A DNA stretch of 64,000 nucleotides from Aplysia californica (GCF_000002075.1 NW_004797321.1:356835-420834); one strand, 5' to 3'; shown: positions 8,962 to 63,110, numbered from the stretch's first letter. A program made the numbers and translations. The notes: a model not told the origin generated them from the sequence alone.

Positions 8962-9040
8962 AGAAATGTGCCTGTGGGATGTAAGTGATGGTCGCTGTGT
9001 GGAGAACACAAAGACTGATAAAGTACACTCAGACATAGTG
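8962..9040 (+). CDS. WDR7: WDR7 coding exon 3 (EMCLWDVSDGRCVE...SDIV)
   Basis: cttttcctcag| acceptor, |gtaagt donor; phase 2 to 0. Confidence 0.93.
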
Positions 9041-9679
9041 GTAAGTACAAACCTGTTCATAATATCGGACATTGTTGTATGCACAAACATGTTAGGCATT
9101 TGGAAAGGTTCAAAGATGTTCATAATAAAATGGATAAGTTTTCTGTTTAAGGTATATTTCCATCTTTTAGAAATCAATGAAGTAATTCTCCTTTTTTTAA
9201 TGAATTTCTAACCAAGAAGACATTCTGTCTCTTACATACTCGTAAGATTTCTTTCTGTCTTTTTTCTTTCTTTCTTTTTTCTTTTTGTTTTGTGTAACAG
9301 AAATAAGCCTAAAACAAAAGACTGATCAGGTGGTATTGGTAGCTTGTGAAAAATGGTATCAGTTCAATTGGTAAAATCTATGGTGTCACTGTGGGTGGAA
9401 ACTGGCAGCTTGTTTGTGGCTACGCTCATCTGTTTACAGCAAAGCCCATTGAGTATATTTGTCCAAGGGAATTTAATCTGAGATTTTGTGTCATGCTTCA
9501 CTAAACTTGCTTCTCAAGGTGAAGAAGGATGTGGGTGATTGGAGGGTGCCTCAAGTAGGTTTTACTCCTTGTTGTTCCTCTGTCTGTCTTTGTTTTAATT
9601 CTTTGCCCTTCACTAAATGGCCATTAACTTTTTCCTCTAACTTTCTGTGTTGTTTTAACCTTGACCATTTCCTCTCCAG

Positions 9680-9848
9680 GCATTTCACCTGAAGTCGTCC
9701 AAAGCTTTACGTCTGATCTGTAATGGTTACTATGATGAGGTGGTCATCATTGATCCTCTGAACCTGGAGATTGTTTACTCCCTGGTGGCCCGGGTGGAGT
9801 CAGATTGGGTCAGCGCATGTTGCGTTCTCTCCCCTCCAAGCAGAGATG
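9680..9848 (+). CDS. WDR7: WDR7 coding exon 4 (AFHLKSS...LICNGYYDEV...SDWVSA...)
   Basis: cctctccag| acceptor, G|gtcagt donor; phase 0 to 1. Confidence 0.92.
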
Positions 9849-10424
9849 GTCAGTAAATGGTTTTTGCAGTTTGCACTTTTTTTTGTGTGTGTGTTTTTTT
9901 TCTTTTTTGTTCAATTTGCTAGTTTTATTACAGAGGCTTCCTCCCTCAAGTTTAATGTCTTTGCAAGAAAAACTGAGCAAGAGTCAAAGAACCATTAACC
10001 TTTCCTTTAAAAAAAAATGGTGGTGTGCATATAATGGTTATAGCGTGCATGAGGTGTGAGTATGATTTCTGTCTGAGGAAATTTAATTATCAAGAAGCCT
10101 ATCTCTGTCTACTAATATATGCTGTATCCCACCTGTGTGTTTGCACTGACAAGCAAGCAGAGTTGATTCGGAAACAGTCGAATTTTGTCAACAAGGACGT
10201 AGATCCATAAATCATTTTCCATAATAATTTTTTTTTTTACTTTTCGAAACGGTGGTGCGGTGATCTAGAATGCAAGTGTTATTGTTAGGTTCCATTTCTG
10301 TATTTGTTGAAATGAGAATAAGAAAAGAAGCCATGACTGCCTAGAGGTACTCAGTGGCTGCCGAGGGGGTGAGAGCTTCATAAATAGTTCACTTCTCATT
10401 TCCCCTCTTTCTTCTTTCCAACAG

Positions 10425-10495
10425 ATGATGTGATTTTGGCCATCACTAACTCAGGCAGTGTCAAAGTTTGGACCTTGTCAATGCCAGAAAGCAAG
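10425..10495 (+). CDS. WDR7: WDR7 coding exon 5 (DDVILAITNSGSVKVWTL...)
   Basis: ctttccaacag| acceptor, AAG|gtgagt donor; phase 1 to 0. Confidence 0.92.
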
Positions 10496-11731
10496 GTGAG
10501 TTGAGATTTGCAGTCCTTGGTAAGTGAATGAGCTGGTAGATTTTTATGACAGCAGTTTACTTTTTTGTCAACTGACCATAGAGGAAACAATGTCACTTCT
10601 GTGTCAGCACTTAATGTTTGTTCATTGAGCATTGAAGGAAAAAAGTTATTACTGCAGCTGATGTTTAATTATAATAATAATAAATAGCATTTATTTAGTG
10701 CATATCCCGGCTCGACAGCGAGCTCTATGCTAATTAACCTATATTATTACCCTTCAAAAGTGCTCAAAAACTAACAAACTGTAAAAAATTTCAACATTAT
10801 TCTATACTGACCATTGAGGAAAGAATGTAATTTCTGTGGCGGATGTTAACATGTTTGTCCATTGACCACAGAGGAAAAAAATGTTTAATCCTGCTTCAGC
10901 CTGTAAGTTATTGTCAAGTGTAGTTGCTATGTGTGGGCCTTTTTGTTGTTTGAGATCACATGAAAACCGTATCATGTGTAGTGCCGAGTATGACCGGCAA
11001 TTGTGGTGTGGTAGTTAGGTTCATAGCCATTGCATGCAGGGGATGATAGTTCAGTTCCTTAATTGGAGAAAATTGTTTAAATCTAGTATTCTCTGTTTGT
11101 CTGATGGGATGTTGTACCCCTCTCAGCCAGGGTTTGCCCAGACAGGCATGGAAGAAGAATCTGCTTGCTAATTGATTTAAGTTGTGTGGATGTTGATAAA
11201 ATACTTACAGTAAACACAACCAAACTGTTGAGTTGGATAATGAGGGGAGACATTACTAGTGAAGGTTTTCCTGTATAATGGAAGAATGCCGTCTGTTACT
11301 CTTTCCCTTCCTTGAGGTGAATTGTTATGTTTTGTGGGTTTTTTTAAAGAAGCATTGGGCAGGGGGTTTTGAGTGGATTATGTGGCATTTAATCTGGAAA
11401 AGTTGAATTAGTGGAGAAAAAAAAATCTACTCAGGCATGCCTTTTCTTTCATATAATATGTGAAAACATTTTGTTCATTTGTCTACTGTGCAACACACAA
11501 ATAGCGAAATTGGTGAGACGAAGAAATCTTCGCATAATGTGCAACTTTGACTATAATATATGTATTTTGAATACAGAGAATGAATTATACAATGTAAGAA
11601 AAAATTCGGGAACTGAAAATCTATTCACGATGGGTGTGTTTCACAATAATATACAAGTTCGTTGTGTGCCTGCGAGACTGTATTTAGTTTGTGTGACACT
11701 CTTTGCTCATTTTTCTGTTCAATTTGTGCAG

Positions 11732-11848
11732 GGCAACAAAGTGCCAGAGGATGAGTCCAAGCAGATCCGCTGTCTCAATGCACAAACTCTGAAGTGTTGT
11801 CCTGGCAACCTTAGGACGGTGCTGATTGTTTGTAGCAAGTATTGGCAG
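11732..11848 (+). CDS. WDR7: WDR7 coding exon 6 (GNKVPEDESKQIRCLNA...VCSKYWQ)
   Basis: tgtgcag| acceptor, CAG|gttggt donor; phase 0 to 0. Confidence 0.92.
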
Positions 11849-60817: not shown

Positions 60818-61013
60818 ATCCGTGAGGCAGCCCAAGCGTTGCTATTAGCCGAGCTACGACGTATCAACCCCGAGGGGCGTAAGGTCCTACTGGACAAGTG
60901 GGCTCCCTTCCTCCCCTCCTATGTGGACCCAGAACTTTCTCTTCTCAGCAACATGGGAGGACATCATGAGGCAGTGGAGGAAGATGATGATGAAGAAGAT
61001 GGAATTTTGGCTG
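60818..61013 (+). CDS. WDR7: WDR7 coding exon 23 ([16 protein letters not shown]...[10 protein letters not shown]...)
   Basis: cctctcag| acceptor, G|gtgggt donor; phase 0 to 1. Confidence 0.94.
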
Positions 61014-61639
61014 GTGGGTGCTTGGCAAAACTGTGAAAGGGACATTTTATTGTCTTTTTTTTTCTCTGTGAATTGACTTAGTGTTTTTCTTTTTTTTCCC
61101 CAAAGAAATTTGGCATGACTCAGCTGGTCTCCATTTATCAGTCAGTTTATTTCTGTTTTTGTTTTTTTCACCATGCCGTCCTCTCTTGAATATACAGCAT
61201 TGTGGACAGTTGGTACAATTTTTAAAAGAATAAAAAGTTTTTTCTTTCCCCTGAAAAATTTTGCATTCTGGGCTTATGACATTTTAGAATCTTGCTGACA
61301 TTTTGCTTTTTATTTTTTGTGCAAGTTATACTTTCTAAAATTTATGCAATACAATTATTTTGAAAATTGTCGATTGTATTGCCCGTTATATTGTTTCACT
61401 CTGTAGAAAAAGTGTCAAAGTAAAAAAATATATTAAGGCCATCCTTGTCCTATCCCTTCTCAGGTCTGTTGTAAATTTGACTACAAGCTTTCGGTTCTTA
61501 TCTTACAACACGACATAAATATTTTGATGCTGTCCAGAGCTAGGGCTTTTTGTCCGTAGCTGAGGATTTGCTTCTGAAATTTGTACTTTGGCTAAAGAGC
61601 CAAGCTGTTAGTCTGATATGCTTCATGTTGCTTCTTCAG

Positions 61640-61849
61640 GTGACATTCCAGCCCACAAGCTGTCCGTGTCGTTTGAGAGTCGCCGTAAACAAGCCACGGC
61701 CATTGTGATGTTGGGCGTGATTGGGGCAGAGTTTGGCCAGGAGATGGAACCTAGTAGGACCAAGGCTTCCGAGGAGCAGAAGAAGGTCAAGGTCAAGGGA
61801 TCGGTGGAGGGATTCAGCCTCACCAACTACTCCCTCGCCAGGCATACCA
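61640..61849 (+). CDS. WDR7: WDR7 coding exon 24 (...[19 protein letters not shown]...NYSLARHT)
   Basis: cttcttcag| acceptor, A|gtcagt donor; phase 1 to 1. Confidence 0.94.
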
Positions 61850-62462
61850 GTCAGTCTGCTAGTTACCTTTATAAACTTTTTAAAAAAATTTTAATTAGAA
61901 GGCCTGTTGAAATGGGCATCCCTGAACAAGTAAAATAAATCTGGGATCTATCTTTTCATATGGAAGGCTTTCATGGCTGTGTGGTTAATCAGTGACGTAG
62001 AATAAGTTCACCTCTGTTAAATTCATATTTGTTTGAGTAGATACTTTTGTCAAAAGTGTGCTTGTTGATTCAAAGTAACTTGGAATGACATCAGTAATTT
62101 TTCGTTTGTCTAAACAATATAAGGGGGGGGAAGTGTTTCTTTGAAAGATGGGGGGGAGGGGGGAGTTGAAGGTGTTGGTGTTCAATAAGACAAATGAAAC
62201 AGGTCAGAATATTTCTCTGAAATATTTTTCATCGTCGTTTTTTCCTGTGTCGATGCCAAGTACTCTGTCTTGTAGTTTGGCCATTGGGTAACACTTTTTG
62301 CTCTAGCAAAAAAAGTAATGTGTGTTTGGTACATTACCTTCCATCCCTATTGTGCTTAGACAAAGATCCAACTTTCCTATGTTGATTTTCTAATCAAATT
62401 ATTTTGTTTAGGCAAAGACTTGACCTTATCATGCAACCTTTTTTTTCTTCTGTTCTCTGTAG

Positions 62463-62649
62463 GCAAGGCCTTGACCTTCCTGTTGCTCCAGCCCCCCAGC
62501 CCTCGTCTACCCCTGCACACACCCATTCGACGAGCAGCCATTGATCTGATTGGTCGAGGCTTTACGGTGTGGGAGCCCTACTTGGATGTGTCAGCCGTAC
62601 TTCTAGGTTTATTGGAGCTGAGCATCGACTCAAACAAACTTATACCCAG
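62463..62649 (+). CDS. WDR7: WDR7 coding exon 25 ([12 protein letters not shown]...[23 protein letters not shown]...)
   Basis: tctctgtag| acceptor, AG|gtgagt donor; phase 1 to 2; no stop codon, so the gene continues beyond the window. Confidence 0.94.
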
Positions 62650-63110
62650 GTGAGTCGGAGTCTTAACTCTTTTTTAACCTTCATTAATACCTAGGTGACA
62701 CAAAGATTATAGAAGTTTTTACTTTCATCAACACCTAGGGTAGACAGAGATTATTAGACTTTTTTTTACTTTCACCTATAGCCAACAGTGAGATAAAACA
62801 GATCATAAACTTTTTTGCTTTCATGAACATCCTGTTGAAGCAGAGATTATAACCTTTTTTAACATCACCAACACCCATGTCCCTTTTTAGATGTCGAAGA
62901 CTAGCCTTTTTTACCCTCACCAACACCTGGGACTCTCCATAGAAGCAGAGACTGTTGTGTTTTTACGTTTGTTAACATTCAAGTTTTTCTATAGAAGACA
63001 GAGCTTCTAGACTTTACCTGTATACATTTACCAACCCCCAAGTAAGACAGAGACTGGACCTTTTACCTTAACCAACATCCAGAGGGTGAGACAGAGACAC
63101 AGACTTTTTA
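62642..63110 (+). repeat. Degenerate ~45-bp tandem repeat beginning with the exon-25 donor
   Basis: Units ATACCCAGGTGAG, ATACCTAGGTGAC, ACACCTAGGGTAGAC, each followed by a T-run and CTTTCA. Confidence 0.65.

Follow-up and report, generated by a model that had tools for sequence, protein, structure and literature searches.

Tandem repeats whose first or last unit contains a splice junction raise the question of whether splice sites themselves promote duplication, or whether repeats that arise everywhere are filtered at the edges of exons. The question is posed by the WDR7 (rabconnectin-3 beta) gene of the gastropod Aplysia californica, as seen in a stretch of 64,000 nucleotides (GCF_000002075.1 NW_004797321.1:356835-420834; here called the window). 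A first-pass annotation, made from the sequence of the window alone, had noticed introns built of tandem copies of the adjoining junction, and proposed that the genome expands introns by duplications nucleated at splice sites and perhaps coupled to transcription or splicing. It had also offered the alternative that minisatellites are simply common and clipped by selection at exon edges. The five junction duplications that it named were all verified at the exact junctions of 14 isoforms, and our analysis favors the alternative: the junction-spanning minisatellites, known as mirages, are likely to have arisen through ordinary tandem duplication, local and with random breakpoints, and then to have been filtered by what exon edges tolerate.

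Junction copies in WDR7

The gene was identified by an exon in the window (98% protein match to A. californica WDR7), and 14 RefSeq isoforms map to it spliced at 100%, which yields 31 coding exons within the window; six more lie downstream of it. The first-pass numbering omits microexons and alternative exons, and its exons 3, 12, 16, 17 and 25 correspond to 8962-9040, 40422-40639, 48454-48579, 54792-54952 and 62463-62649. Tandem Repeats Finder (TRF) at default settings detects only the array at acceptor 48454 and misses the four donor cases, which are degenerate. Each of the 62 WDR7 junctions inside the window was therefore tested by alignment of its 24-mer to the neighboring 250 nt of the intron it borders, with other introns as the null (99.9th percentile score, 9-10).

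Six of the 62 junctions carry copies of themselves, and five of these reach a score of at least 11: donors 9040, 40639 and 54952, and acceptors 48454 and 62463 (Table 1). The 36-bp duplication claimed for the exon 3 donor was recovered as a copy at +36 that retains its GT, yet has a weak donor score. At the exon 12 donor, 40639, the count of four copies stood, including one at +640 (near 41279), each with a GT and scoring on par with the real site; their spacing is irregular and they do not form the clean tandem array that had been described. The three-copy array at the exon 17 donor has a period of 55 rather than 54 bp. Donor 62649 (exon 25, ~45-bp unit in the first-pass annotation) is the weakest case (score 8, p = 0.018), where lenient TRF finds 5.2 copies of period 44 from 62642. 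A head-to-tail arrangement with the working site in the terminal copy is clear at 48454, 54952 and 62649, and is seen in two-copy form at 9040 and 62463. The splice dinucleotide, GT or AG, is retained in 15 of 16 WDR7 junction copies. The units are unrelated to each other, as had been noted (21 pairs, smallest p 0.05), and gave no match elsewhere across the 1.66 Mb searched.

The exon 16 acceptor array, with its 53-bp unit, was likewise borne out, with an extent of about 46463-48475. The exon start copied in it encodes VHLLTEEY, a peptide that other molluscs share exactly or almost exactly, and the array therefore arose from the junction and not vice versa. Conservation of the exonic parts across other molluscs supports the same direction for the arrays in general: each unit is unique, local in origin and unlike the others, and the exonic halves predate the arrays. 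The insertion that splits the 53-bp array is flanked by a near-perfect 8-bp duplication (7/8), and by these features is likely a miniature inverted-repeat transposable element (MITE), probably of the hAT type.

That the arrays are artefacts of assembly is extremely improbable. The most identical part of the 48454 array, about 48108-48370, appears in fragments, as short contigs that cannot count its copies; however, most arrays are 60-85% identical between copies, and contigs of X1 and X5, from different samples and studies, carry 45250-46872, 47549-47878, 47852-48102 and 48369-48639 with 0-1 differences. Over the degenerate array parts the X1, X5 and X11 contigs are concordant, and the copy number of the identical core is beyond them.

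Table 1 Features of the WDR7 locus, in window coordinates unless another sequence is named; scores are those of the junction 24-mer test
Feature	Coordinates	Strand	Remarks
Donor 9040, single duplicate at +36	9029..9100	+	score 14
Donor 40639, copies at +79 and +148	40628..40800	+	score 16
53-bp-type array, built from the end of the intron and about 22 nt of exon 48454-48579	46463..48475	+	score 16
High-copy insertion splitting the 53-bp array (~750 bp)	46845..47597		imperfect terminal inverted repeats
Donor 54952 array, period 55	54932..55083	+	score 11; about 3 copies (2.8), 60% matches
Acceptor 62463, single duplicate at -51	62400..62475	+	score 12; absent from the first-pass list
Donor 62649, first unit of degenerate ~44-bp array	62642..63110	+	score 8; array by lenient TRF, with related units as far as 63110
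41-bp minisatellite, about 8 copies	25872..26185	+	ends 8 nt ahead of microexon 26194-26220
34/44-bp minisatellite, presumed second microexon case	33345..33633	+	no isoform support for exon
Degenerate 35-bp array	50912..51078	+	ends 44 nt ahead of acceptor 51123
WDR7 (rabconnectin-3 beta), coding exons 1-31	7034..62649	+	100% spliced match, 14 RefSeq isoforms
Alternatively used microexon, 45 nt	16681-16725
Alternatively used microexon, 27 nt	26194-26220
Alternatively used microexon, 33 nt	29408-29440
78-nt exon	23185-23262
624-nt cassette exon	51123-51746
Stop-codon array in the 3' untranslated region	L049:6030-6560 (G000:C51 about 436030-436560)		beyond the window

The WDR7 exon set includes three microexons, two cassette exons and one alternative acceptor. 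Two further minisatellites had been said to end at candidate microexon acceptors, which holds for one of them. The array at 25872-26185 abuts the 27-nt microexon rather than deriving from its junction, and homology of its 41-bp unit to the microexon was rejected, since there is no resemblance (p = 0.86). This microexon is used in 11 of the 14 isoforms, and a Biomphalaria isoform has a counterpart. The second case, given earlier with no location, is probably the array at 33345-33633, whose end lies at a 12-nt AG..GT piece absent from all 14 isoforms; here no isoform-supported exon follows.

Arrays relative to exon edges

WDR7 was singled out post hoc, and one hand-picked gene cannot show enrichment. 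Its five junctions at a score of at least 11 compare with 2.8 expected from array coverage (P = 0.15), with 1.3 expected by the one-sided rate (P = 0.011), and with 2.6 when the genome rate is scaled to the doubled array density of this gene (P = 0.12; P = 0.048 for six junctions). Arrays cover 8.3% of WDR7 introns versus 4.2% of 737 control introns. The rate of junction copies in WDR7 exceeds that of the controls, though with the doubled density taken into account the difference is not clear.

Control introns were taken from dynein heavy chain and myosin genes of the same genome (17 and 16 regions, respectively), with junctions called from distant homologues. Applied to WDR7 with 20 non-gastropod homologues, the junction caller placed 17 of 17 introns correctly, four of them at duplicated junctions. 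Exclusion of overlapping calls (9 dynein, 7 myosin) and of calls with a margin under 6 left 618 dynein and 119 myosin introns, from which one mis-called 102-nt myosin 'intron' was dropped to give 736. The latter is a true acceptor duplicate, and including it would raise the count of acceptor-spanning arrays given below to 4. In this myosin region (M123, L200:3480-3830) the 102-bp duplication carries AG and then GT, and the stretch between the acceptor copies mimics a small GT-AG intron, which misled the caller.

Junction copies were found at 22 of the 736 donors (103 copies) versus 9 of the 736 acceptors (15 copies; binomial p = 0.029), where chance would give under one each (dynein set); in the sampled genes, about 3% of the donors and 1% of the acceptors thus have a copy of themselves nearby. 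Shuffling whole arrays along the gene, the control suggested with the first-pass annotation, reveals depletion, with 25 of 200 arrays overlapping a junction versus 40.8 expected. A null based on origin, which lets the founding unit land at any random position inside the intron or over its edge, separates the two ends of the intron. With lenient TRF, donor-spanning arrays number 17 versus 8.8 expected (p = 0.005) and acceptor-spanning arrays 3 versus 8.8 (p = 0.019), while 14 arrays abut donors and 34 abut acceptors, with 10.0 expected for each. Strict TRF gives 11 versus 5.9 for donor-spanning, 14 versus 7.3 for donor-abutting and 25 versus 7.3 for acceptor-abutting arrays.

Measured on 627 introns before de-duplication, the rate of first units is 2.5% at donors and 1.7% at acceptors, rises to 2.9-4.5% between 24 and 114 nt into the intron, and falls to 0.4-1.2% farther in than 250 nt; exon edges are therefore favored by arrays, and the junction itself is not. 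There is no enrichment peak at offset 0 and the breakpoints have no fixed register, the exonic share of the donor-spanning unit being uniform (Kolmogorov-Smirnov p = 0.76, n = 17). Furthermore, stop codons also anchor arrays. A degenerate array, counted by eye at roughly nine copies (score 22), has the stop and last codons of WDR7 as its first unit, and downstream copies occur at one of six dynein stop codons (region C1; six retained from 9 hits to a stop motif, 3 being judged other than dynein C-termini). Dispersed repeats, which cannot originate at splice sites, nevertheless show an about twofold edge excess: within 40 nt, donors have 52 and acceptors 60 of 552 repeats (27.2 expected each), and, leaving out one abundant element, 36 and 26 of 400 (19.4 expected). 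Given the edge excess of dispersed repeats, the random register and the stop-codon arrays, nucleation at splice sites is not needed. The absent junction peak and the depletion on shuffling likewise speak against nucleation coupled to splicing, and common minisatellites filtered at exon edges are the better fit.

We propose that slippage or unequal exchange generates the copies, and that their fate would depend on where they fall. Duplications lying entirely in exons would be purged, whereas those spanning a donor would be tolerated, the first copy staying in use, and hence could expand. Duplications spanning an acceptor would place decoys before the real site and would be kept less often and at shorter lengths, the 53-bp array of WDR7 being exceptional. 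The over-representation of all repeats near exon edges, roughly 1.5-2 times in this scheme, probably reflects constraint on deletions there together with a working copy that does not decay; by this reasoning the latter could alone double detectability, an effect as large as the donor excess.

Decoy splice sites and the acceptor pile-up

The expectation that such arrays create decoy sites was confirmed by intact GT and AG copies. Among the control donor copies, up to 27 of which occur at one donor, GT is retained in 92 of 103 versus 79 expected, so that there is no purge, and 40 of these 92 score at least as high as the real site. AG is retained in 8 of the 15 control acceptor copies. The 48454 array contains 11 decoy acceptors with AG, nine of which reach a stop before the end of the exon; the two at -204 and -249 are in frame. 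Spliced contigs of run X11, taken as transcript-derived solely because they are spliced, show only annotated acceptors for the 48454 array: 45462 is joined to 48454 at a depth of 747 and to 45806 at 12.9, and the joints listed include none to a decoy, in one sample whose contigs drop rare forms. In the 3' part of 44700-63200, X18 contigs support seven annotated joints. Raw RNA runs X21-X23 are uninformative on decoys, with near-zero depth over WDR7 exons of 44700-63200 and a predominance of dispersed repeats. The decoys are likely to be silent or nearly so. No gain of an exon was seen, and no new intron occurs in the 14 isoform models or in the control calls, neither of which was searched systematically for one.

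The exon at 45806 is an alternative one, present in 1 of the 14 isoforms and spliced there at 45874. An X11 contig continues from it unspliced to 46365, and 45806-46365 may be an alternative last exon that leads to a truncated WDR7.

Decoys could in principle have a function in tuning how WDR7 is alternatively spliced, as in the skipping of exon 48454-48579 or of the 27-nt microexon. Each of these exons is indeed absent from 3 of the 14 isoforms, loose ends in X11 join 45462 to exon 54792, and the relevant passages of PMC1557585 describe human CBS and 6-16 arrays that use extra donors. The other five duplicated junctions, however, border exons present in 14/14 isoforms, and no decoy joint is listed for X11. 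Degeneracy of the copies and the insertion that interrupts the main array also count against such a role, which we consider very improbable.

Several results weigh against tolerance-filtered duplication as a complete account. The controls are two motor gene families and not a random sample, and with strict TRF the depletion of acceptor-spanning arrays is not significant (3 versus 5.9, p = 0.14). The GT counts come from a best-copy search biased towards GT-retaining copies, the silence of the decoys is read from contigs that lose rare splice forms, and several of the 11 AG copies kept by the 48454 array score on par with the real acceptor. Above all, arrays pile up 3.4-fold before acceptors (34 versus 10.0; 30 versus 9.7 without the tail element described below), and other dispersed repeats do so less (26 versus 19.4, p = 0.08); retention at edges may therefore not explain all of the excess. 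The pile-up is the least well explained part of the data, and sustains as a rival the idea that duplications form more often near exon edges.

According to this rival, a physical cause such as nucleosome linkers, microhomology in pyrimidine tracts, or breaks linked to transcription or splicing would act together with selection. It would accommodate an excess of arrays that is sharp from -7 to 40 nt before acceptors and absent at 41-200 nt, as well as the youth of several acceptor-abutting arrays (85-96% matches). These arrays were also considered as decayed mirages, which was rejected, since only 1 of the 34 has exon likeness at p < 0.05; the lack of residual likeness again suits edge-biased formation.

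A retroposon-like repeat points the same way. This ~190-bp dispersed element with a short tandem A-rich tail (for example L178:5190-5390) was surveyed in dynein, myosin and WDR7 introns, and lies in sense orientation in 114 and in antisense orientation in 39. Sense copies end 10-50 nt ahead of the acceptor, at branch-point distance, in 31 cases versus 4.9 expected, and 10 of the 39 antisense copies are within 50 nt of a donor versus about 2 expected; at both intron ends the tail points towards the exon. It has no match in Rfam, and could possibly donate a branch point or insert beside exons. The window has 8 copies, all of them more than 100 nt from an acceptor, the closest lying at 110 nt. 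The element is abundant in polyA reads.

Taken further, the rival would make Aplysia exon edges a mutational zone, in which tandem duplications and retroposon insertions favor the region up to about 50 nt from exons, and scanning for splice sites imposes the polarity. Donor-spanning arrays would then grow and acceptor-spanning ones be removed, repeats would accumulate next to the branch point and pyrimidine tract, and one retroposon tail may supply a branch point. With no peak at junctions, a uniform register, depleted acceptor-spanning arrays and arrays anchored at stop codons, we regard edge-biased formation as unlikely, and the mutational zone equally so; if true, such formation would bear on intron turnover.

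Comparison with known systems

Repeats of this type were already known from amphioxus and from human genes. Beyond the papers cited here, our literature search yielded no treatment in molluscs or on a genome-wide scale, subscription journals being outside its coverage, and the available passages of PMC10078293 contain no test of junction-spanning arrays. In amphioxus, mirage minisatellites have been reported in Adh3, the globins BflGb6 and BflGb9, troponin C and PGBD5; as described in the passages concerned, they span exon-intron borders at donors and acceptors alike, many retain AG or GT, normal splicing persists, and a role in intron gain has been proposed (PMC3087553, PMC3902484). The WDR7 arrays share the tandem border-spanning copies at both kinds of site, many with AG or GT, but occur in a gastropod, are mostly old and degenerate, and number six in one gene. 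The same amphioxus passages include neither a genome-scale null test nor a comparison of donors with acceptors. The Rogers model, as cited in a passage of PMC3087553, derives intron gain from tandem duplication of AG/GT proto-splice sites. The raw material is shared; the sole candidate among our controls, M123, proved to be an acceptor duplicate preceded by intron sequence.

Such arrays can mislead gene prediction, and they offer natural material for experiments on how the spliceosome passes over decoys of equal strength, the 48454 acceptor with its 11 AG copies being a good example. The donor bias measured here is consistent with 5'-3' scanning for splice sites. Human variable number tandem repeats that reiterate a junction are found, according to the passages of PMC1557585 on this subject, in intervening sequence 7 of F7 (IVS7, 37 bp), CBS intron 13, 6-16 intron 2, LMNB2 and PDGFA, and the downstream pseudo-donors of F7 are silent under 5'-3' scanning. 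As in WDR7, the first unit spans the border; the human downstream pseudo-donors are mostly silent, and all five of these human examples are donor arrays, in line with the donor bias. The human arrays described there are near-identical and length-polymorphic, whereas the WDR7 arrays are mostly degenerate and the main one lies at an acceptor. The WDR7 arrays extend the mirage phenomenon to a gastropod, and are probably ordinary, harmless clutter.

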